Shown piece after piece: positions 6,341 through 17,398 of a DNA stretch of 64,000 bases; position 1 is the first letter of the stretch; each line of letters starts with the position of its first letter. The notes beneath the pieces were generated by a model. That model was not told the origin of the DNA and ran no database searches. It saw only the letters and a program-made list of their open reading frames with translations. Both the position numbers and the translations under genes were made by a program. This DNA comes from Candidatus Binatia bacterium (GTDB lineage: Bacteria > Desulfobacterota > Binatia > Bin18). The DNA lies in contig OY761159.2 in NCBI GenBank assembly GCA_963664395.2, positions 4,288,001 through 4,352,000 of the forward strand, read 5' to 3'.

Positions 6341-7456
6341 TTACTCCGTCGTGTGTGTATCTTGCCAGGCGCGGCCCATCGAGTCCGCGGCCAGAATGGC
6401 GTCGGCAACCATGTCAGGCTGCACGGCAAACGGTTCGTTATGGATGGTTTCTCCTTCCGCGGTCGCCCGCGTGGCCACTTGTTCAAGCAGGTCTTCCGGG
6501 AATTCGCTGAGCCCGATCTCGGCCAGGGTGATAGGCAGGCCGACCGCTGATGAAAACTCCAGAACCGGATCGATAACCGAGCGTGGCTGACCTTCGAGCA
6601 CTAATTGAGCCATCAGGCCGTAGGCGACTTTTTCCCCATGATAGTACGGATGGGTGAGCGGGGCTGCGGTGAGGCCATTATGGATGGCATGGGCTGCGGC
6701 AAGCCCTGAGGACTCGAAGCCCAGACCCGACAGCAGGGTGTTGGCTTCGACAAGCCGCTCCAGGGCTGGATTGACAACGTGACGTTCCACGGCCCGTTTC
6801 GCATCCGGACCGTCTTCAACCAGGATGTTGTAGCACAGCTCCGCCAGCTTTTCGGCGCTGCGCGTTGAGGCTCCCCCACGCATATTCTGGACATGACCGG
6901 CAACACAGGTTTTGGCCTCGAACCACGTGGCCAGCGCATCTCCCATCCCTGCCACCAGCAGCCTGGCCGGAGCTTGGGCGACAACATAGGTGTCCACCAC
7001 AACCAAATCCGGGTTCTTCCGATAAAAGCGATATTCCTGGAATACCCCTTCGGGAGTATAAATCACCGACAGCGCGCTGCACGGCGCATCACTTGAGGCA
7101 ATGCTTGGACAGTTGACGACAGGCAGATCAAGGTCGTCGGCGGCGGCCCGGGCCGCATCCAATACCTTCCCGCCGCCCGCTCCGATAATGACCTGAGCCT
7201 TATTCGCCCGCGCCGTTTCTTTGATACGTTCGATTTCAGGGTAGGAGCACTCCCCCCCGAACTGATGGACGACGTGGGTGATGCCGGCATCGTTCAAATG
7301 TTTCTGCCAGACTTCCGAGAGCAGCCGAATGGCACTTTTCCCGGCAACAATACAGGCCGGTCCCTGCAAGCCAATACGCTGCATTTCCGTTCCTAAGGCG
7401 GCAGTGGCGTGCTTCCCTTGTACGTAGTGGCTGGGGGCTGAAAAAACCGAGAGCAT
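6341..7456 (-). CDS. gldA: Glycerol dehydrogenase (GldA family)
   Basis: FSAPSHYVQG, GAGGGKVLD, IASSDAPCSALSVIY, GMGDALATWFEA, AAAHAIHNGLT and HGEKVAYG motifs; RBS before ATG 7456. Confidence 0.9.
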   Translation of the reverse strand: MLSVFSAPSHYVQGKHATAALGTEMQRIGLQGPACIVAGKSAIRLLSEVWQKHLNDAGITHVVHQFGGECSYPEIERIKETARANKAQVIIGAGGGKVLDAARAAADDLDLPVVNCPSIASSDAPCSALSVIYTPEGVFQEYRFYRKNPDLVVVDTYVVAQAPARLLVAGMGDALATWFEAKTCVAGHVQNMRGGASTRSAEKLAELCYNILVEDGPDAKRAVERHVVNPALERLVEANTLLSGLGFESSGLAAAHAIHNGLTAAPLTHPYYHGEKVAYGLMAQLVLEGQPRSVIDPVLEFSSAVGLPITLAEIGLSEFPEDLLEQVATRATAEGETIHNEPFAVQPDMVADAILAADSMGRAWQDTHTTE

Positions 7457-7582
7457 ATGTCCCTCCTTACCGATTGCTATTCCCTCAGATAGAGCAGGCA
7501 GTATAAACTGAGACGGGTTGACGCGGCAAGCAGGAGAGGGCCATTGGGACAAGAGGAGAGACGTTACTGTCGCCCCATATTG

Positions 7583-8437
7583 ATGAGCAGGATTCAGTAT
7601 CGGGTGCTCTGTCTCGTTGTCTTCGCCCTCTGGGGGGCTGGATGTTCTGAATTGCCGGGCGAACCACTCAAGTTAGGTCGGCATACGTATAGTAACGACC
7701 CCAGCGCCGAGCCGTGTCCGCTCGGTGAACGGAGCGGCCAGGGTGGTATGAGCAACGATGAGCGGACCGAACACGGGATTACGTATGCGGTTCGGACGCC
7801 GGCCAACTACAATCCAAAGATTCTTCACCCGCTCCTCATGGTCTATGCCCCAGCAGGCTCAAGTCGGTTTCACTCCGAGCGTCTGACCAATCTGACTTTC
7901 ACGGCAACGACGGCCGGCTTTGTCGTTGCCTACGCTGACTCCCTGCGTCTTTCACTCGAAGCCATTCCTGAACTCGGTACGATTCCACGGCTCATCGCCA
8001 AAAAATGGTGTGTTGATGAGCGGCGTGTCTATCTGACCGGCCATTCTGACGGTGGAACAGTTGCCTTGGCCCTGGCCCTTTTAGACGAGACACGCCACAT
8101 TCCCGCTGCGGTGGCTCCGAGTGCCGCCGGGTTCAGGCAGGCCGACCTCGAAACATTCTCGTGTCCCGAAGCCTTGCCTGCGCTGATTATGCACAGTGCG
8201 GATGACCATCTTTTCCCCGGCTACGGGGCTGATACGGCTGCTTGGCTGGCTTCGTGTAACGAGTGCCAGCCCCGTTCTATTGACAAGGACGAAAACGGTT
8301 GTATGGCCTACTCAGGCTGCACGGCGGCGAACAGAAAGACCATATACTGCGAAGGAACTGGTGCGCATAGGCATTGGCCCGCGCTCAATACGGCTCTCCT
8401 CTCGTTCTTCGTTGATATCGATAGCACCCTTCACTAA
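7583..8437 (+). CDS. PHB depolymerase/LpqC-like esterase, predicted lipoprotein
   Basis: Lipobox-like WGAGC; nucleophile elbow GHSDGG; HSADD and C-terminal HRHWP. Confidence 0.75.
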   Translation: MSRIQYRVLCLVVFALWGAGCSELPGEPLKLGRHTYSNDPSAEPCPLGERSGQGGMSNDERTEHGITYAVRTPANYNPKILHPLLMVYAPAGSSRFHSERLTNLTFTATTAGFVVAYADSLRLSLEAIPELGTIPRLIAKKWCVDERRVYLTGHSDGGTVALALALLDETRHIPAAVAPSAAGFRQADLETFSCPEALPALIMHSADDHLFPGYGADTAAWLASCNECQPRSIDKDENGCMAYSGCTAANRKTIYCEGTGAHRHWPALNTALLSFFVDIDSTLH

Positions 8438-8528
8438 ATAGGGCTCGCGCCCTGGAGTTGTCTCCGCTCCCTCAGCCTGCTATCTCAGTACCGTTGGTAA
8501 ATGACTGAAATTTCGTAAGAATTGACTG

Positions 8529-9101
8529 ATGCGACGAGCCTGCCGAATCTTCCTTCTCATATCCGCAGTGGCGACGCTCTGCCTGGCTCTTCCTGTGTCA
8601 TCCTGGGCGCACCGGGATAGAGGGCCGGGAGACCTGTGCCGCCGAGAGGTCGGTGCTTCACTCTTGCATATTACGTTCTATCAGACCCAATTTGACCCGG
8701 TCACAGAATATTGTGAAGAAATTCCGCGGGTGGGCAATGCTTTCCTGGTCGTGGACGTGACTCCGGATCTATGGGAAATGCCGTTCGGCGTCCAACTCGT
8801 TGCCTCAGATGAATCTGGACAGTCGAGTACGATACTGTCGCTGCCTTCACAAGTGTATGAACGTGGCGTGGCCAACGCTGAAGTCTTTGTGAAGGCCGGC
8901 ATGAGCTATGAAGTGCGTGTCGCGCTTGGACTTGAAGGTGAACCAGAACCGCGTAAATTTTTATTTCCCTTTCAGGTTGCAGCATGGTACAAGGCTATGG
9001 TCGGGCCAGCGCTGATTGTGATCGGAGTCGTTATCGTCATTGCGATATCGGTAATCCGTTATCAGATCACCTCTCGGAGCAGAGAAGCGCTGGTGGAATA
9101 A
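8529..9101 (+). CDS. pmoD: PmoD/AmoD-like copper protein (copy 1)
   Basis: Signal peptide, DLC-x7-LLHITFYQ...EYCEEIPRVG, C-terminal TM helix; directly upstream of xmoC. Confidence 0.75.
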   Translation: MRRACRIFLLISAVATLCLALPVSSWAHRDRGPGDLCRREVGASLLHITFYQTQFDPVTEYCEEIPRVGNAFLVVDVTPDLWEMPFGVQLVASDESGQSSTILSLPSQVYERGVANAEVFVKAGMSYEVRVALGLEGEPEPRKFLFPFQVAAWYKAMVGPALIVIGVVIVIAISVIRYQITSRSREALVE

Positions 9102-9151
9102 AGAGAGAGAGTGTAAAGTAACGTCGTTATTACTATTGAGGAGGGATACGC

Positions 9152-10000
9152 ATGGCTCAGGCGCAAGCAGTACAAAACGTACCGAAAGGTTCTGGCGATG
9201 GTTCTCTGACAAGTGGCAGCTCAGTCAACCCGACTGATTGGTCAGTCGGGTGGCATCCTCTATTCTGGGGGTGTGGGCTTATTATGCTTGCCAACGTCTT
9301 TTTCTGGTGTTGGAACTATGCCTTTATGTTCACGGCCGGACTGAACTCAGCGAGTGCTGAATTCACGCTGTATTACCGGACGCTGTTCTGGGGCGAACTA
9401 ATTGTCTTAGGCGTGTTTAGTGGCGTGTGGTTTGGCTGGCTCATGCGGAATGGCCGGGCCGTTGAGGGACAAGAATGCTCACCCGCCGAGGAGACGCGTC
9501 GCATCGCGATTTTGTGGAGCCTGATTGGCGCGACGAGTCTGGCAATCTATATGGAAGCCAGCTTCTGGCCGAACTGGGACGGCTCGTGGCACCAGACCAT
9601 GGTGCGTGACACCGCGCTCACACCGACCCACATCCCGATGTTCTACTTTTTCTTCCCGCTCTCCGTCGTGTTAGCAGTTGGCACCTACGTCTACGGGCGA
9701 TTCCACATTCCGGCGCTGTACGGCAAGGATAAAGGCTTTCCCTGGTCGTTCTTTTTGCTGATCAGTGCCTGTGTGCTCGAATGCATGGCCGTTGCCGCCA
9801 ATGAGTGGGGCCATAGCCTGTGGATCTCCGAAGAGATTTTCTCCGTTCCGTTTCACTGGCCGTTTGTGATTTATGGCTGGCTTGCCGCCGGCATGTTTGC
9901 GGTGTGGGGTGAAACCCTGGTGCGCATGTTCGAGGTCGAGAAGGCCGAAGAGGCTGCTCATCCGGAATCTTCACTCGAGTCGCCGCTAGCTGCTGATTAA
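9152..10000 (+). CDS. xmoC: Copper membrane monooxygenase subunit C (PmoC/AmoC family)
   Basis: DGSWHQTMVRDTALTPTH (CuC D,H,H) and NEWGHSLWISEEIFSVPFHWPF (CuD N,H,H); GAGGAGG RBS. Confidence 0.93.
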   Translation: MAQAQAVQNVPKGSGDGSLTSGSSVNPTDWSVGWHPLFWGCGLIMLANVFFWCWNYAFMFTAGLNSASAEFTLYYRTLFWGELIVLGVFSGVWFGWLMRNGRAVEGQECSPAEETRRIAILWSLIGATSLAIYMEASFWPNWDGSWHQTMVRDTALTPTHIPMFYFFFPLSVVLAVGTYVYGRFHIPALYGKDKGFPWSFFLLISACVLECMAVAANEWGHSLWISEEIFSVPFHWPFVIYGWLAAGMFAVWGETLVRMFEVEKAEEAAHPESSLESPLAAD

Positions 10001-10062
10001 TAATCGGCTCAGGTTTGGCTCGATAAACGTATCGACAATCCTCGTGCAGAGAGGAAGTGCGC

Positions 10063-10866
10063 ATGGCGGCAGACACCACAACCGTAACGGACATCACCGG
10101 TGCAGCCGAACGGCAACGTCGGCTCGAACTCAAGGAGCTGCTGAACAAGAAATACAAGTGGCTTGGTTGGAAGTGGGATCTTGTCTTCTGGACGACGGCT
10201 ATTTTCGTAGTTGCCGGTGCCGCTGACATCACCAAGCAGCTGTTTGCCGGTGACTGGGATCACTGGACGGATTGGAAAGATCAGCAGTGGTGGCCGGTGA
10301 TCACGGCTTTTGCCACGATTATCATTCCGTCGGCGCTCCAGTACATTCAGTGGGCAGCTTGGCGATTCCCGACTGGCGCGACCTACACCGCCTGCTGTCT
10401 CTTTCTGGCTGCCTGGGCCGGGCGTTATTTCCAGTGGGACTTGGCGGCCAACTATCCGCTGAATTTCGTGTGGCCGGCCTCCGTCGTCTGCGCTGGAATC
10501 CTGATGGACTGGACCTTAATGAAGACCAAGAGTTTTATCCTCACCTCGTTAATCGGTGCCCATGTCTGGGCGATCGCGGTGTGGGCCTATAATTACGTCC
10601 CCTTAGCCGCCTTTCTCCAGCCGGCCTATTTCATGGACCATGTGGTGACGGTTGCCGACGTCCAGGGCATTGCCTATATCCGCTCCCAGACGCCGGAATA
10701 CCTCCGGCTTATTGAGCGGGGTGCGTTGCGGAGTTTCCTGGGCGAGACGCAATACGTTTCCCTGGCCTTTGGGGGAACGGCGGCCTTTGTTGGCTACTGG
10801 ATCGGTCAGTTTATTGGCCGTTATCTGGCGGTATGGCCTATTCGGCGTTATCTGAAGATCGTGTGA
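10063..10866 (+). CDS. xmoA: Copper membrane monooxygenase subunit A (PmoA/AmoA family)
   Basis: GDWDHWTDWKD, RFPTGAT, YPLNFVWP and ADVQGIAYIRSQTPEYLRLIERGALRSF motifs; start 10057 GTG or 10063 ATG. Confidence 0.93.
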   Translation: MAADTTTVTDITGAAERQRRLELKELLNKKYKWLGWKWDLVFWTTAIFVVAGAADITKQLFAGDWDHWTDWKDQQWWPVITAFATIIIPSALQYIQWAAWRFPTGATYTACCLFLAAWAGRYFQWDLAANYPLNFVWPASVVCAGILMDWTLMKTKSFILTSLIGAHVWAIAVWAYNYVPLAAFLQPAYFMDHVVTVADVQGIAYIRSQTPEYLRLIERGALRSFLGETQYVSLAFGGTAAFVGYWIGQFIGRYLAVWPIRRYLKIV

Positions 10867-10867
10867 G

Positions 10868-11227
10868 ATGAATATTATGTGCGGCATGTCTTTCAAACGT
10901 CAGCAATCTGCCCGGTATGTCAGCGTCTTCTCTTTCTTCATCGCGCTGCTTGCCGGTGTGTCTCTCTATCCTTCCCTCGCGCATGCCCACGGTATGAACG
11001 CCGCTGAAATGGCCCCGCCTATTATTACCGCGGGCATACTGGCGTTCGTCTGCTACTGGCTCGTGGTTTTGTGGCCGGCATCGAAAGGTGCCGAAACCGG
11101 CCTGCAGTGGCCGCCGGAAACGGACCGGGCTATTCGCATCAAACGCAAGCCTCGCTTACGGGTCATAGAAACGAAGCCTCAGCTCCCGGACGAACAGCCT
11201 GAGAGCAGGCAGGTGGCCGATGGCTAA
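10868..11227 (+). CDS. Small uncharacterised membrane protein between xmoA and xmoB
   Basis: Starts 1 nt after the xmoA stop and overlaps the xmoB start by 8 nt; signal peptide ending AHA, mature HGMNAAEM, one TM helix, basic tail. Confidence 0.7.
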   Translation: MNIMCGMSFKRQQSARYVSVFSFFIALLAGVSLYPSLAHAHGMNAAEMAPPIITAGILAFVCYWLVVLWPASKGAETGLQWPPETDRAIRIKRKPRLRVIETKPQLPDEQPESRQVADG

Positions 11228-12479
11228 GCGGTTCGTGATCGGTAGTGTCGGCGTGTTAGGCGTCATCCTGGCCGTTGTCGTCGCCAAGACGCCCAGCGCC
11301 TTTGCCCATGGTGAGGCTGCCGACGAACCGTTCTTGAAAAACATGACTACGGCTTTCTTCAACGTCAGCGTTTCGCCGACCGAAATCGAGGTGGGAGAGC
11401 CGGTCAAGGTGACGGGCTCGGTCAAAATCCTCGAGACCTGGCCGCATACGCTGGAGACCCCGGAAATCGCTTCCATCATGCCGGTCGTCCCCGGGCCGGT
11501 CTTTGTACTCAGGGAGCGTTTTGTCAACGGAACGGCCGCCATCGGCTCGTTTTTCGCCCAAAAGGGGGACATTTACGAGTTTGAAATGGAGCTGGTTGGC
11601 AAAGAGCCAGGGGACTGGCATGTGCATCCCGGTATCGCCATCTATGGGACCGGTACCCTGATTGGGCCTGGCGAATGGGTTAAAGTCAAACCAAGTGCTG
11701 AACCCTTCTCATTCCCGCTCACACTGATGTCTGGTGAGACGATTGAACTCGGTACGTATGGAGGATCATTCGTCTGGTGGTGGTCGTTTGCCGGATTTGT
11801 CTTGGGGGTTATCTGGATACTGTACTGGACGACGAATAAAAGAACGGTGACCAATCTCGCAGTCACTGTCCAGCTGCCAGTGAATGACGATGCCCCCGAT
11901 ATTGGCCTCATCACGCCGCGTGACCATATGTGGATGAATGTTATCGTTGGCGTGACCCTGGTTATGCTGGTTGTCGGTTGGACGTATGCCACATCAAATG
12001 CGCCAGTTCGCTGGCCGCAGCAAACGGACTGGTTTACTCCGGAATTCATTTCTTCTGGTGAGAAAATTGTTGAGGCCCGGGCCAGCGGGGCGACGTATGA
12101 CGAAGCGAGTGAAACGCTTGAGATGAAGGTCCAAGTGACGAATGTTGTTGAGAGCGACATCGAACTCAAGCAACTGACTATAGCGATGGCGACCTTCGTG
12201 AACGGACCGGAAGCCGAACAGGCGAAAGCCGGTCCGAGTGATTTTGTTGGTCGGCTCGAAGTCCAGCCGGACGGGCCGATTGCTCCGGGCGAAAATAAAG
12301 AGCTGACCCTGACTATTTCAAGTAGTATTTTCAGCGAAGAGCGTCTCATCCCGACGCAAGCACCGCAGCAGTTTATTGGCGCAGTCTTACGCTTTGAGAA
12401 TGGGAACGACGGTCATGAGTTAGTGACGGTCCGTTCAAACGTCGTCCCCACTCAGTTCCGTTCTACCTATCTGCCATAA
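11220..12479 (+). CDS. xmoB: Copper membrane monooxygenase subunit B (PmoB/AmoB family)
   Basis: Signal peptide then AHGE, PGPVFV, GDWHVHP, GPGEWV, two central TM helices, PIAPGE and ERL motifs. Confidence 0.93.
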   Translation: MAKRFVIGSVGVLGVILAVVVAKTPSAFAHGEAADEPFLKNMTTAFFNVSVSPTEIEVGEPVKVTGSVKILETWPHTLETPEIASIMPVVPGPVFVLRERFVNGTAAIGSFFAQKGDIYEFEMELVGKEPGDWHVHPGIAIYGTGTLIGPGEWVKVKPSAEPFSFPLTLMSGETIELGTYGGSFVWWWSFAGFVLGVIWILYWTTNKRTVTNLAVTVQLPVNDDAPDIGLITPRDHMWMNVIVGVTLVMLVVGWTYATSNAPVRWPQQTDWFTPEFISSGEKIVEARASGATYDEASETLEMKVQVTNVVESDIELKQLTIAMATFVNGPEAEQAKAGPSDFVGRLEVQPDGPIAPGENKELTLTISSSIFSEERLIPTQAPQQFIGAVLRFENGNDGHELVTVRSNVVPTQFRSTYLP

Positions 12480-12520
12480 GCTCCAGAGCGGGGACAGACC
12501 TCCCCGCGGGTGGAGCCTCG

Positions 12521-13093
12521 TTGGACAGCGTTGTGAAACTCTTCTCCCTTGTTGCCATGCTCCTCGTCCCAACGGGAGCATGGGGACATGGGGGTGTCGC
12601 CATGGATATGGACCCCTGCATAGAGCGGGCCGGCGCCTATCTGATCCATTTTTCTGCCTACCAGCCGCAAGAGTACGCAACCGAAGAATTCTGTCGGAGC
12701 GTTCCTCTGACCGGGAGTACGATTCTCGTTTTTGATCTGATTGATCCCGAATTGCGCAAGAAATCAGCTGCGGTGCGCATTATTAAGGAAACCAATACTG
12801 CTGAACCTCGACTGTTGCTCGATATCCCGGCACGGGTGTATCCCAGCGGCGTGGTGAATGCTGAAGTCCATTTTGACACACCTGGCCAGTATACGGCCCT
12901 GATGACGCTTGACGGGGTTGATGGGTCTGTGCGGTTTCCCATTCGAGTCGCTTCACTCTCAAATACCATGCTGGTCCTGATCGCGGGCCTGATCATCGGC
13001 TGCGGCGCTGGCTATTATGTCGTCGGTGGCAAACTCGGTTGGCCACCGTTTTCGGTGAAAAAGGTTCCGTCACTCACATTGGTCAAGGGATAG
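12521..13093 (+). CDS. pmoD: PmoD/AmoD-like copper protein (copy 2)
   Basis: HGGVAMDMDPC-x7-LIHFSAYQP...EEFCRSVPLTGSTILVFD, YPSGVV, C-terminal TM; TTG start. Confidence 0.8.
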   Translation: MDSVVKLFSLVAMLLVPTGAWGHGGVAMDMDPCIERAGAYLIHFSAYQPQEYATEEFCRSVPLTGSTILVFDLIDPELRKKSAAVRIIKETNTAEPRLLLDIPARVYPSGVVNAEVHFDTPGQYTALMTLDGVDGSVRFPIRVASLSNTMLVLIAGLIIGCGAGYYVVGGKLGWPPFSVKKVPSLTLVKG

Positions 13094-13151
13094 GTGCGAA
13101 ACCACCTATCCCCCCTTTTCCTAACGCTCTGTTCACAGTACATATTGAACG

Positions 13152-14846
13152 ATGTGGCTGCGTGGTCTTCTCTTTTTCTGCCTTCTTCTGAGTGTACTCG
13201 CTATCGGTACGCTTTTTCTGCTTCCTCGTGCCTGGCTCCCCCGCCCGATACAAGACTTTGCGTATCAATATATCGGCGAAGAGTCCTACCAAAAGCCGCC
13301 TCCCAGTCGCGAAATAAGCCCTGTCAGTGTGGAGCCATTTTGTCTGGACAGACACCCAGACTGGCGGAAACCTCAGACTATTGAGGGCGTTGCCGTGGAA
13401 GCATCACCGGTTTGTGATCCAGATAATCCAGCCGACATTGCGGCCTTTGTCAAAGGGACGAATAATATTGCTCTGCACACGCTCATGGAGACGCGGCTCA
13501 CGCCCAATACGGTGGTGAAGGAGAACGACCGAGACGGGGATGGCGACCCGGATGAGATTCACATCCGACTTGAAGTCATAGAATTGAACGGACACTCACC
13601 GGATGACCCCGCCCCATTCCCCGCCTATTTCATTGCGCCTGGCGTACAGCCCGGGCTGTGGGTTTTTGCTCCAAAATCACGCGGCATGGCGACGGAGAAT
13701 TTTGAAAGTGAACAGGCGCACCCGACCTTGAGAGCCCCGTCTCCGGTGATTCGTATAGAGCAGGGTGATACGCTCCGGGTGACCTTGGAGAATACACACT
13801 ATCTGCCGCATACCATTCACTTCCATGGGGTTGACCATCCCTTTGTTGACGCCGCCGGCGAGGGAAACGACGGTGTTCCCATTGTGAGTGAAATGCCAGT
13901 CACACCAGGGGAGAGTCGCACCTATGAGATGACCCCGCGTCAAACGGGCACGATGTTTTACCACTGCCACGTCCAACCTCATGTCCATATTCTGATGGGA
14001 CTCCAGGGCATGTTTGTTGTTGAAGAGAACCGGCCGAATAACTGGCTCCAAACGCTCAATATTGGAGCCGGTCGGGTGCGCGCTGTCTCTGCGGCAGTCA
14101 GAGAGTCGTATGATCGGGAATTCGACCTGCACTACCAAGACATCGACCCGGCGTTGAATAACATTATTCAGACCGCGACGGATCCCAGATTAATCGCCGA
14201 AGCGACGAATCGGGGTTATGACATTACGGATCAAGAACCTGACTATTTCTTACTAAACGGACGGTCATTTCCCTATACGACCCGCGAGTCGCTTGTTGTT
14301 GTTGCCCCAAATGAACGGGTCAAACTGCGTGTCCTCAACGGCGGAGCGGAAGGAATCTCTCTGCATACGCATGGGCATAAAGTCAAAATCACGCATTATG
14401 ACGGCGTCGAACATAATCCGGCTGCTCAAATCACCCGCGATGTGGTATGGCTGAGCCCCGCCCAACGGGTAGATCTTCTCCTCAATACAACTGATGACGG
14501 ACTGCATAATTATGGGCAAGGCATCTGGCTGCTCCACGACCATAAGGAAAAGGCCATCACAACTGATGGGATCAACCCTGGTGGCAATATCAGTGCCATT
14601 GTCTATCAGGATTACTTGGACGCATCCGGTCAGCCGAAAACGCAGGGGATGGATTGGGCGCCGTTTTTCACCAAGGAGTATTATCAAAAAAAGCTTCCCA
14701 TCTGGGCTGGCCTGGAGGACTTTAACCTTTTTGGAGAGGCGGGTACTCGTTCCCTGCCCTTGAGTTCCGCACTCATACTCGGGATAGGTATCGGCTTCCT
14801 CATCGGCGCGGCTTGTGCCTTTGGGCGATTTACCCGACGCCGATGA
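13152..14846 (+). CDS. Membrane-anchored two-domain multicopper oxidase
   Basis: HTIHFHG and YHCHVQPHVHILMGL (type 1 Cu) in domain 1; LHTHGH and WLLHDH in domain 2; hydrophobic N- and C-terminal segments. Confidence 0.88.
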   Translation: MWLRGLLFFCLLLSVLAIGTLFLLPRAWLPRPIQDFAYQYIGEESYQKPPPSREISPVSVEPFCLDRHPDWRKPQTIEGVAVEASPVCDPDNPADIAAFVKGTNNIALHTLMETRLTPNTVVKENDRDGDGDPDEIHIRLEVIELNGHSPDDPAPFPAYFIAPGVQPGLWVFAPKSRGMATENFESEQAHPTLRAPSPVIRIEQGDTLRVTLENTHYLPHTIHFHGVDHPFVDAAGEGNDGVPIVSEMPVTPGESRTYEMTPRQTGTMFYHCHVQPHVHILMGLQGMFVVEENRPNNWLQTLNIGAGRVRAVSAAVRESYDREFDLHYQDIDPALNNIIQTATDPRLIAEATNRGYDITDQEPDYFLLNGRSFPYTTRESLVVVAPNERVKLRVLNGGAEGISLHTHGHKVKITHYDGVEHNPAAQITRDVVWLSPAQRVDLLLNTTDDGLHNYGQGIWLLHDHKEKAITTDGINPGGNISAIVYQDYLDASGQPKTQGMDWAPFFTKEYYQKKLPIWAGLEDFNLFGEAGTRSLPLSSALILGIGIGFLIGAACAFGRFTRRR

Positions 14847-15580
14847 GGGAATACCAAATGGATTTCTTTCTGAGGAAGAATGATTATAGGGGGACGGTGG
14901 CGTCCGGGAGAAGGCAGCTCCATAGGGCCGTCTCTACACTGATTGTCTATACCGTGTCCACATTGCTTTCCGGCGCGATCGGCTCGGCTCAAGAGCATGC
15001 TCATCACCATAAACATCATGGGATGCAGCTCGATACTGCGGGTATGGTGATGAATGAAAATACGGACCAGCTCCCCCGGGGCTGCCCCCGCATTTCAGGT
15101 GAGCACGAGCTTACCGTTCGTGCCGGAAAAGAATTTGCCCACCCAGGGACGATGTTCGCGTATGATCGGAACGAATGGGATTTTAAGCCATGTACGAAAC
15201 TCACGGTGACGCTCATTAATACGGACAGTGTTCGTCACCAGTGGATGCTGCACGGCCTTCCGCGCTATATCTACCCCCAGGGCATGTTTACGCTTGAAGT
15301 CGCGGGCAAAGGGCAGCGGACAGGTACCTTTATCCTTCCGCCCGGAGACAAGACCTATCTGGTGCACTGTGATGTTCCTCAGCATATGGAAAAGGGAATG
15401 AAGGCCCAGCTCAAGGTCGGGGCTGGAAATGGGGATCTGCCCAGCATTCCCGGGGTGACCGGACCGCGTCTGCGGGACCCGTATTCAATGGCCTGGAACT
15501 GGTGGACGCATGGTGCTGTCTTTGTATTCGGTATCGTCAGTATGATCTTCGTGGGAAGAAGGTTGCGCCTTTTTCCCTAG
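14843..15580 (+). CDS. Cupredoxin (type 1 blue-copper) protein with His-rich N-terminus and C-terminal TM anchor
   Basis: HAHHHKHHGM; HQWMLHG and HCDVPQHMEKGM (C-x4-H-x4-M); ATGA overlap with the MCO stop. Confidence 0.8.
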   Translation: MREYQMDFFLRKNDYRGTVASGRRQLHRAVSTLIVYTVSTLLSGAIGSAQEHAHHHKHHGMQLDTAGMVMNENTDQLPRGCPRISGEHELTVRAGKEFAHPGTMFAYDRNEWDFKPCTKLTVTLINTDSVRHQWMLHGLPRYIYPQGMFTLEVAGKGQRTGTFILPPGDKTYLVHCDVPQHMEKGMKAQLKVGAGNGDLPSIPGVTGPRLRDPYSMAWNWWTHGAVFVFGIVSMIFVGRRLRLFP

Positions 15581-15685
15581 GAGTTCGGGGCGTCATATGC
15601 CCTCTTTCTCTTGACCTCCAGTCTAAAAATAAGTAGGGTTCGACCACATTTTTCGATTGTCAATTACTCCGAGGAGGCATTATCC

Positions 15686-17398
15686 ATGCGAGGTTACTGG
15701 TTGTCGATATTTTTACAGGTGGCAGTCTCTCTCATGCTTCTCTCTCCAACCGCACTTTACGCTGACGCGCCTGCCAAGAACGCTGACGCGCTTCAGCCGG
15801 TTACGCACGAGCGTTTGGTCAAAGGAACGGCCAACTACGCTGACTGGCTGATGTACGGTGGGAATTATGAAGGCTGGCGATTTAGTCCCCTAACGGATAT
15901 TGACCGCCAGAATGTCAAAAAACTCCAGGCCGCCTGGATTTTTCAAACCGGGGTGCCAGCCCAAATGCAAGCCTCACCCGTGGTTGCCGATGGCGTGATG
16001 TATCTTACCGCGGCCTACAACAAGCTCTTTGCTTTAGACGCCGTAACTGGCAAACCGCTCTGGAAATATGACCATGATCTGCCGGACGATCTGCGGATTT
16101 GCTGCGGACCGGGCAACCGGGGAGCTGCGCTGGCTGGGGATAAGGTCATTATGGCCACGCTGGATGCGCGTATTGTCGCACTCAACAGGAAAACCGGTGC
16201 AGTCGTGTGGAATACCCAAGCCGACGACTATGCCGACGGCTTCAGCTTTACCCTGTCACCACTGATTGTTCGAGACAACGTCATTGTTGGTATTGCGGGC
16301 GGTGAATACGGTATTCGCGGCTATATTGATGCCTATGATCTTAAGACCGGAAAACGCAAATGGCGTCGTTATACGGTGCCTGACGAAGGCGAGCCTGGTG
16401 CCGAGACCTGGGCTGGTGATTCGTATAAACAAGGCGGCGGACCGGCTTGGGTGACTGGCTCGTATGATGCGGATCTTGACCTGGTTTATTGGGCAACGGG
16501 TAATCCGGCCCCGGACTGGAACGGGGATGGACGTGAGGGTGATAATCTCTACACCAACTCGGTGTTAGCTCTTGAGCCTGATAGCGGTGAGATCAAATGG
16601 TACTTCCAATTCACCCCGCACGACGTCTGGGACTATGATGGCAACACGGGGATATTTCTGCTCGACGTGATGCGCAGTGGCCAGTCTGTCAAAGCCTTAG
16701 CCCAGCCCAATCGGAACGGATATATGTATGTCCTTAATCGTGGGGATGGAAAGTTCCTGCACGGCTCCCAATACGTTGAGCAGCTCAACTGGGCGAAAGG
16801 GCTGGACGAAAATGGCCGGCCGCTTATTGACCCCAAGTATGTTCCCATGGAGGGAGGCAATCCTGAATTAATCTGTCCCGGGAATGCGGGGGGACAAAAC
16901 GGATCGTATGCTGCGGCCTACAGCCCGCTTGCCAATCTCATCTTTGTCCCGACGATTGAGAGTTGCGGAAAAATGGAAAAGGCCAAATCTATTTTCATCA
17001 AAGGCATCCCATTCTGGGGCGGGGGGCCTGGACAAACGCAGGGCGACCTCGGCACAGCATACGGTCACGTCACGGCCATAGACCCCACCAGGGGTGAAGT
17101 GAAGTGGCGCTATAAGGACGAGTGGCCGATGGTTGGTGGGGCACTCGCTACAGCCGGGGGACTCGTATTTACCGGCAACCAAAAGGGATTCGCTCTTGCC
17201 TTGGATGACGCGACGGGTGCGGTCTTGTGGAGGTTCCAAACTGGCTCGGCTGTTCGGGGACAACCGATTACATACAAAGTTGGTGGTAAACAATATGTTG
17301 CTGTTCCCAGTGGCGCCGGGGGGTTGGTCGTGGATATCGTCGGTAAATATCCCCAAACAACACCGGGTAGCTCTGTTGTGGTATTTGCGCTCCCGTGA
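15686..17398 (+). CDS. PQQ-dependent alcohol dehydrogenase, putative lanthanide-binding type
   Basis: Signal peptide, vicinal CC (RICCGPGNRG), GGEYGIRG, WATGNPAP, FTPHDVWDYDGN; no CxxCH haem motif; GAGGAGG RBS. Confidence 0.92.
   Translation: MRGYWLSIFLQVAVSLMLLSPTALYADAPAKNADALQPVTHERLVKGTANYADWLMYGGNYEGWRFSPLTDIDRQNVKKLQAAWIFQTGVPAQMQASPVVADGVMYLTAAYNKLFALDAVTGKPLWKYDHDLPDDLRICCGPGNRGAALAGDKVIMATLDARIVALNRKTGAVVWNTQADDYADGFSFTLSPLIVRDNVIVGIAGGEYGIRGYIDAYDLKTGKRKWRRYTVPDEGEPGAETWAGDSYKQGGGPAWVTGSYDADLDLVYWATGNPAPDWNGDGREGDNLYTNSVLALEPDSGEIKWYFQFTPHDVWDYDGNTGIFLLDVMRSGQSVKALAQPNRNGYMYVLNRGDGKFLHGSQYVEQLNWAKGLDENGRPLIDPKYVPMEGGNPELICPGNAGGQNGSYAAAYSPLANLIFVPTIESCGKMEKAKSIFIKGIPFWGGGPGQTQGDLGTAYGHVTAIDPTRGEVKWRYKDEWPMVGGALATAGGLVFTGNQKGFALALDDATGAVLWRFQTGSAVRGQPITYKVGGKQYVAVPSGAGGLVVDIVGKYPQTTPGSSVVVFALP

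Follow-up and report, generated by a model that had tools for sequence, protein, structure and literature searches.

Supernumerary transmembrane helices, located on the outer face of PmoC/AmoC, came to be seen as a regular part of pMMO and AMO only in 2024–2025 (PMC11725843, PMC12804982, PMC13058606). The extra helix of the Methylocystis sp. Rockwell pMMO corresponds to a 23-residue ORF and that of the Nitrosomonas europaea AMO to a 46-residue ORF (PMC11725843); the latter had been unannotated, and the homologous helix in the N. halophila AMO has been named AmoD (PMC12804982, PMC13058606). The archaeal AMO possesses small subunits that raise the number of helices per protomer from 10 to 14 (PMC13058606). 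The CuMMO considered in this work belongs to a widespread lineage of soils, sediments and sponges, the substrate of which is debated (methane or short alkanes). A gene order “CAxB” has already been published for these operons (Murphy 2021), in the available text without an analysis of the gene x, and Binatota pmoA was found to be transcribed in a sponge metatranscriptome (PMC9999580), the available portion of which does not mention the extra gene. The Binatia/Binatota CuMMO literature that we searched, including 10.64898/2026.02.02.703227, contained no discussion of this gene in the portions available, and no description of it as a family was found in the literature search, supplements lying outside its scope.

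The DNA analysed, referred to below as the window, is a stretch of 64,000 nucleotides from a Candidatus Binatia bacterium (assembly GCA_963664395.2, contig OY761159.2, positions 4,288,001 to 4,352,000 of the forward strand), and all coordinates are those of the window unless a locus is named. It contains a small gene, X (10868–11227, + strand), in the interval between xmoA and xmoB. Like the supernumerary helices of pMMO and AMO, the product of X is small, has a single transmembrane helix and is specific to one CuMMO lineage. The orientation predicted for it is that of the Rockwell pMMO helix, which passes from periplasm into cytoplasm, while the AMO helix has the opposite one. Unlike these helices, X would have about 79 mature residues, a predicted cleaved signal peptide, an invariant N-terminal histidine and a basic tail, and its place between A and B contrasts with that of amoD, which has non-amo neighbours. 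The pMMO and AMO helices have been seen in structures bound to the enzyme, on subunit C. The initial annotation of the locus had referred to the extra helix of pMMO as unassigned, a statement which is partly outdated since helices have meanwhile been attributed to the two short ORFs (PMC11725843).

The likeness to these helices is one of architecture only, because X has no detectable similarity to solved chains: the best match of the X profile (25 sequences) to PDB chains of at least 20 residues had E=0.55 and the matches were to unrelated proteins. No homology to the assigned helices, chains of 9CL5, 9CL6 and 9LEG, emerged from this comparison, the inclusion of the 23-residue helix chain in the set being unconfirmed. 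No Binatia CuMMO structure was among the results of the PDB searches with XmoA and XmoC, and an ESM Atlas look-up of X gave no usable match. With the archaeal AmoX, AmoY and AmoZ subunits (PMC13058606) X shares the character of a small membrane protein conserved throughout one CuMMO lineage, the archaeal genes being linked to amoA, amoB and amoC or co-regulated with them. The comparison of X with Pfam and NCBIfam returned no family. X appears to be an addition to the enzyme and not a replacement, because XmoC, XmoA and XmoB match the bacterial Pfam profiles over nearly their full length.

The operon and the reading frame of gene X

The adjacent C, A and B genes, all on the + strand, identify a CuMMO operon by their Pfam matches: xmoC (9152–10000; AmoC, E=7.9e-42), xmoA (10057–10866; AMO, E=1.8e-52) and xmoB (11220–12479; Monooxygenase_B, E=9.2e-70). 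The best solved relative of XmoC is PmoC (4phz_K, E=4.4e-38), in the alignment with which the motifs rDT..TPtHI and NEWGH..pfHW are retained, and that of XmoA is the PmoA of pMMO (E=1.8e-42). XmoB has its own signal peptide, ending in SAFA before H30-G31-E32, and its residues H30, H134 and H136 are invariant in the 15 sequences aligned. All three subunits score far under the NCBIfam equivalog cut-offs for pMMO and AMO, so the enzyme of the window is a divergent CuMMO.

The operon is flanked by two genes for PmoD-like proteins of 190 aa, D1 (8529–9101, +) upstream of xmoC and D2 (12521–13093, +), the products of which are 27% identical in alignment. D2 matches PmoD in the PDB (phmmer, 6cpd_A, E=6e-11), and its H23, which would become the first residue on the predicted cleavage, is invariant, as are C33, H43 and C58. 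D1 consists of a signal peptide, a periplasmic domain and a transmembrane helix at the C-terminus, and it matches no family of Pfam or NCBIfam. Of the 31 related genome loci described below, 28 have D1 upstream of xmoC, the other three (L025, L027 and L028) giving no D1 match. The motif of D1 and D2 is Cx7LxH, not the CuA-forming Cx7MxH, the version that has been linked to CuA formation (PMC6189053). Downstream of the operon lie the genes of a multicopper oxidase (13152–14846), of a cupredoxin-like protein (14813–15580), which overlaps the former by 34 nt, and of a PQQ alcohol dehydrogenase (15611–17398), in an order that at least 20 of the 31 genome loci retain. Upstream, the minus strand has a gene for an alcohol dehydrogenase of the iron type (6341–7552). 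A promoter scan of 8300–13300 detected no promoter-like sequence on the + strand, nor any in the vicinity of X, the count of such sites not exceeding the shuffle expectation; terminator-like sites were commoner in this region than in shuffles, none of them flanking X.

The TGA stop codon of xmoA (10864–10866) is separated by one base from the ATG at 10868, from which a frame of 119 codons extends to the TAA at 11225–11227. The xmoB ATG is located at 11220, and the end of X and the start of xmoB therefore share 8 nt (11220–11227, +) within ATGGCTAA. In-frame ATG codons 3' of the xmoA stop are found at 10868, 10877 and 10886, the second and the third giving proteins of 116 and 113 aa. The methionine conserved in relatives is that of 10877 or 10886, not that of 10868, and an identical database protein has 116 aa, so that the conserved start codon is more likely to be 10877 than 10868. 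The initial annotation had described the ORF as filling the A–B gap exactly. Its 119 codons and the 8-nt overlap with xmoB are as described, but the 1-nt gap to xmoA holds for the longest frame, that is, from the first ATG only, and is probably not true of the start really used.

The 8-nt overlap also follows from the coordinates in most of the loci L003–L020. Its recurrence in close relatives suggests coupled translation of X and xmoB, and the conserved C-terminal ..ADG of X may partly reflect the overlapping start signals of xmoB and not the function of the protein. In two loci (L027:950-1276 and L028:2333-2674) an in-frame stop removes the last 8–9 codons of X, the ancestral C-terminal codons being still readable beyond it; either the extreme C-terminus is dispensable or these stops are sequencing errors.

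Conservation, genomic position and variants of gene X

A word-indexed search returned 67 candidate homologues of X, 54 of them with E≤0.01, at 37–100% identity. The profile built from 25 sequences, the protein of the window and 24 matches picked so as to cover the range of identities, retrieved 93 cluster representatives among 1.84 billion proteins at E≤1e-3, with 57 at E≤1e-10 and 4 at E≤1e-30. Pairwise dN/dS values (NG86) calculated over the window and 31 genome loci had a median of 0.28 for X (30 usable sequences, 294 pairs) and of 0.04, 0.09 and 0.06 for xmoA, xmoB and xmoC, respectively. Inside X the ratio of means was lowest over residues 41–72 (0.16) and rose to 0.34 in the basic tail, 0.62 in the signal peptide and 0.81 in the linker. 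Compared with the core subunits X changes several times more rapidly: it is 29–73% identical in the genome loci, where XmoA is 80–97% identical, and falls to about 30–50% in metagenome loci with an XmoA 70–92% identical to that of the window. X is a genuine protein-coding gene under purifying selection. A chance ORF is ruled out by the 54 homologues, the 93 cluster representatives and the dN/dS of X. An origin of X from the 5' end of xmoB was looked for by BLASTP of X against XmoB, which gave nothing better than E=0.29; the predicted mature N-termini of the two proteins are alike over a very short stretch (HGMNAAEM.. and HGEAADEP..).

The position of X was assessed starting from XmoA in 401 Binatia genomes, 88 of which had a match. 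We retained the pieces that share 70% identity or more with XmoA, 83 in 82 genomes, leaving out the matches of 33–43% identity, which represent a second CuMMO type, and three upstream split-gene pieces (one in G638, two in G766). An X match follows 80 of these 83 pieces on the same strand at a distance of 14–148 nt (median 31.5), or 79 of 82 if the unpublished genome G595 is set aside. The three pieces lacking it (in G401 and G457, and the second piece of G650) are partial XmoA fragments, and that of G401 lacks its downstream side, the fragment ending at contig base 2. Matches to the X profile numbered 104, in 82 of these 401 genomes, and none of them adjoins any second-type xmoA when the coordinates are compared.

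Loci fetched by X-like patterns, a procedure that is circular for the presence of X but not for its position, gave the same picture: in each of the 31 genome loci X occupies the interval from xmoA to xmoB. A metagenome scan, for which an 11-sequence alignment of two divergent sub-families served as the seed, yielded 75 loci, and the family motif is situated between A and B in all 69 that hold both flanks; the remaining six are cut at a contig end, three on each side. These comparisons show the position of X to be strict and the gene to be restricted to one CuMMO clade. Absence of the ORF from the A–B interval of relatives had been named beforehand as one outcome that would refute the proposed accessory helix, and it was not what we found: the ORF is kept at the exact place in every related operon examined.

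The taxon labels of the 31 genome loci read Candidatus Binatia/Binataceae in 24 cases, Deltaproteobacteria/delta proteobacterium in four, Thermodesulfobacteriota in one and “Enterobacteriaceae” in two. Three loci (L011, L021 and L025) carry a Binatia-type xmoCAXB yet Thermodesulfobacteriota or Enterobacteriaceae labels, and these labels look wrong.

The genome of the window contains a second CuMMO operon (L001, G000:C1:2386313-2389981, minus strand) with the order C-A-B, the A subunit of which has about 33% BLAST identity to XmoA; no X is present in its 84-nt A–B gap. Most genomes of the same genus have both operon types. In twenty genomes of this genus there is also a stand-alone paralogue of X, distant from any CuMMO gene, in which a signal peptide and the sequence AxA-HRGFGPAELG are followed by a CYW..LWP helix and by a tail that is short (KKKDSS) and has no basic motif. 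It was located by pattern between an aminopeptidase gene and a fadB-like gene in five genomes (that of the window, L142, L143, L145 and L146); at a sixth locus (L144) the pattern missed it and the X profile matches between the same two genes. In the paralogue of the window's genome (G000:C1:1872230-1872385; L066:8213-8383) the signal-peptide part is in another frame, due to a frameshift or an assembly error. The tie of the X family to the operon is thus not without exceptions, and the module of a histidine followed by a helix can occur outside it. A strict link between the paralogue and the second CuMMO was considered and rejected: 19 genomes of the genus have both, seven the second CuMMO only and one the paralogue only, and the two are never adjacent.

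Two further variants concern the operon itself. X and XmoB are found in one open frame in two of 100 operons (L032:5863-7497 and L133:3206-4651), either as an in-frame fusion or through loss of the X stop, and the database protein P0074 has the same arrangement. Three loci (L147, L148 and L149) contain two intact X genes in tandem between xmoA and xmoB, the first with a short tail and the second with a long basic one, which matches the previously reported order “CAxxB”.

Thirteen RNA-library runs contain at least half of the words sampled from the xmoA-X-xmoB region. In run X1 a single contig covers 9100–12578, from xmoC to just beyond xmoB, with 4 differences; run X2, of the same study, gave a contig of 9113–11347, run X3, of a second study, one of 10273–11851 with 14 differences, and run X10, of a third study, a 181-nt contig (11166–11346) over the X/xmoB junction. 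RNA-library contigs from three studies join X to flanking genes, and single assembled contigs hold xmoA, X and xmoB together, although DNA may be present in such libraries and the contigs show neither strand nor level. The contig depth drops after xmoB; contig depths cannot rank genes.

Anatomy of the protein and candidate copper ligands

The hydrophobic stretches of X, defined by a 19-residue Kyte–Doolittle mean above 1.6, comprise residues 15–38 and 48–72, with AHA-HGMNAAEM between them, and the tail that follows has 10 K/R and 8 D/E. Hydropathy thus bears out the parts listed in the initial annotation, a signal peptide, the peptide HGMNAAEM, one transmembrane helix and a charged tail. AF2 modelling of X alone gave helices at 8–40 and 45–76, the second block with a pLDDT of about 80, and a disordered tail, at a mean pLDDT of 60.5; hydropathy has a single hydrophobic stretch after the signal peptide, in line with the modelled helix 45–76.

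The predicted signal peptide occupies codons 1–40 (10868–10987, +) and includes K10, R11 and R16, a hydrophobic core and A38-H39-A40. It is followed by the predicted periplasmic mature N-terminus, H41-G42-MNAAEMA (10988–11014, +); A40, H41 and G42 are invariant in the 25 sequences. The transmembrane helix, residues 50–70 (PPIITAGILAFVCYWLVVLWP; 11015–11077, +), has in the same sequences the invariant positions P50, P51, L58, C62, Y63, W64, L65, V66, L68, W69 and P70. The predicted cytoplasmic basic motif IRIKRKPRLRVIE (residues 89–101; 11132–11170, +) has invariant K92 and R96, while R90, I91, R93, P95, L97, R98 and I100 are at least 90% conserved. A40-H41-G42, the proline pair and the CYWLVxLWP helix are also invariant or nearly so in 15 operon-matched sequences, and among 37 divergent representatives A-H, one proline, Y, W and P stay invariant. 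The core of the family is a signal peptide ending in AxA, a mature start of His-Gly, some nine periplasmic residues, the CYWLVxLWP helix and a basic tail.

For a wider tally 129 of 146 family proteins could be scored, the other 17 being N-terminal fragments or missed by the pattern; the histidine was selected by this pattern, so the claim of its invariance rests on the alignments above. The position before the histidine is Ala in 129 of 129, and at the position two residues further upstream A accounts for 91 of the proteins, V for 30, L for 4, T for 2 and G for 2. Signal peptidase I follows the −3/−1 rule, and X would accordingly be cleaved after A38-H39-A40, with His41 as mature residue 1. 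The residue following the histidine is Gly in 121 of the 129, a Met occurs at mature residues 2–5 in 91, and all but one of them (128) have an acidic residue among the first 12 mature residues. The histidine stands 22–24 residues ahead of the YW motif in every one of the 129, and YW is preceded by Cys in 90, by Ser in 21 and by Gly in 11 of them.

A tail in the cytoplasm agrees with the basic residues that follow the second helix, and X would thus be oriented N-out, C-in. The X–XmoB fusions lend independent support to this topology, since a fusion is workable only if a cytoplasmic X tail is followed by the XmoB signal peptide.

In having a signal peptide, a membrane anchor and linkage to the CuMMO operon X is similar to PmoD/AmoD (PMC6189053, PDB 6CPD). 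D1, D2 and X have in common the invariant histidine after the signal peptide and similar residues following it (HGG.. or HR..GP..D/E-L), and hhalign of X with PmoD-like proteins gave a probability of 55%, mainly over the signal peptide and the first residues. Unlike PmoD, X has neither a cupredoxin domain nor the two invariant cysteines; its one Cys lies inside the helix.

Copper sites built on an N-terminal histidine are known from the histidine-brace proteins CopC and the LPMOs and, as a mono-histidine brace, from YcnI; a classical histidine brace needs a second histidine. What bears on a comparison of X with such sites and with the CuB site of PmoB is its histidine, which is predicted to be residue 1 and is strictly conserved, as is H30 of XmoB. 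In contrast to the histidine-brace proteins, X has no folded domain, and the mature chain contains no other His in 73 of the 129 proteins, so that such a site could be completed only by ligands of a second polypeptide.

The possible role of X in the CuMMO

The reading best supported by these data is that X is a supernumerary single-helix subunit of the CuMMO with a copper-binding N-terminal histidine, and we give it somewhat better than even chances, on the grounds of its position, coupling and conservation pattern and of the analogy with the helices of pMMO and AMO. That X is an accessory gene of this CuMMO, as had been proposed for it, gains support in so far as a dedicated product is indicated by the conserved place, the RNA-library contigs, the overlap with xmoB and the two fusions. 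X is carried together with xmoC, xmoA and xmoB on the RNA-library contigs, and it would probably be made in step with the core subunits because it starts 1–19 nt past the xmoA stop and its own stop overlaps the start of xmoB. Its signal peptide would insert the precursor into the membrane and be cut off after A38-H39-A40, leaving His41-Gly42 at the periplasmic face, one membrane crossing (residues 50–70) and, on the cytoplasmic side, the basic tail. Through its near-invariant face (C62, Y63, W64, L68, W69, P70) the helix might pack against the membrane domain of XmoC, XmoA or XmoB, in parallel to the supernumerary pMMO and AMO helices on subunit C, and the histidine at the free N-terminus, together with a Met and a carboxylate close to it, may bind copper or hand it over at the membrane surface.

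The same architecture would also suit a transient copper-delivery or assembly factor, which would stand beside the nascent enzyme, load a copper site and be absent from the mature complex. We regard this main rival to the subunit reading as possible though rather unlikely; the two readings are not mutually exclusive. It could account for the invariant His-Gly with Met and acidic residues close by, and for the company in which X is found, namely the two flanking pmoD-like genes with an invariant histidine after the signal peptide and the multicopper oxidase and cupredoxin-like genes downstream; the faster evolution of X relative to the core subunits and the existence of stand-alone paralogues are likewise compatible with it. 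However, conservation in X is highest in the helix and not in the periplasmic peptide, as would fit a stable packing interface, and both the in-frame fusions and the nucleotides shared by the end of X and the start of xmoB speak for production in matched amounts.

If X is a subunit, its role may go further. The N-terminal histidine could serve as an intermolecular ligand to a copper centre at the periplasmic surface, its amino group and imidazole being joined by a neighbouring Met or carboxylate; we put forward such a function of a fourth subunit as a tentative proposal, which we consider unlikely. If it is true, the Binatia CuMMO has a copper site made of two polypeptides, or an entry route, which is absent from pMMO and AMO, and the stand-alone paralogue and the N-termini of the PmoD-like proteins belong to the same copper-relay chemistry.

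The single-pass protein X is encoded inside the operon, in the A–B interval, throughout this CuMMO lineage. Expression of xmoCAXB with and without X, together with H41 variants, would offer a genetic handle on what such helices do, and the invariant N-terminal histidine provides a specific and testable link to copper handling. The family, for which no Pfam model exists, can be named on the strength of its 93 cluster representatives and used as a marker of the CuMMO clade.

X could instead be a membrane adaptor unrelated to catalysis, the helix of which docks on the enzyme or in the membrane while the basic tail recruits a partner, cytoplasmic or membrane-bound, or organises enzyme arrays, the histidine having no copper role. 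Array formation or partner binding has been proposed for the supernumerary helices (PMC11725843), and the tail motif is conserved in close relatives, with a weaker +xP+L+xV/I pattern in distant ones. This explanation seems improbable to us, since across the family the tail is less strictly conserved than the A-H-G of the cleavage site; the paralogues and the first member of each tandem pair have lost this tail, and it is predicted to be disordered.

The frame of X might finally be thought of as a translated spacer that couples the translation of xmoB to that of xmoA through a start beside the xmoA stop and a stop overlapping the xmoB start, the peptide itself being functionless, but this is already disfavoured to the point of being highly implausible by purifying selection on the amino acids, strongest in the segment with the helix (dN/dS 0.16), by the invariance of the same residues in homologues of about 30% identity and by the second CuMMO operon, which copes with a gap of 84 nt.
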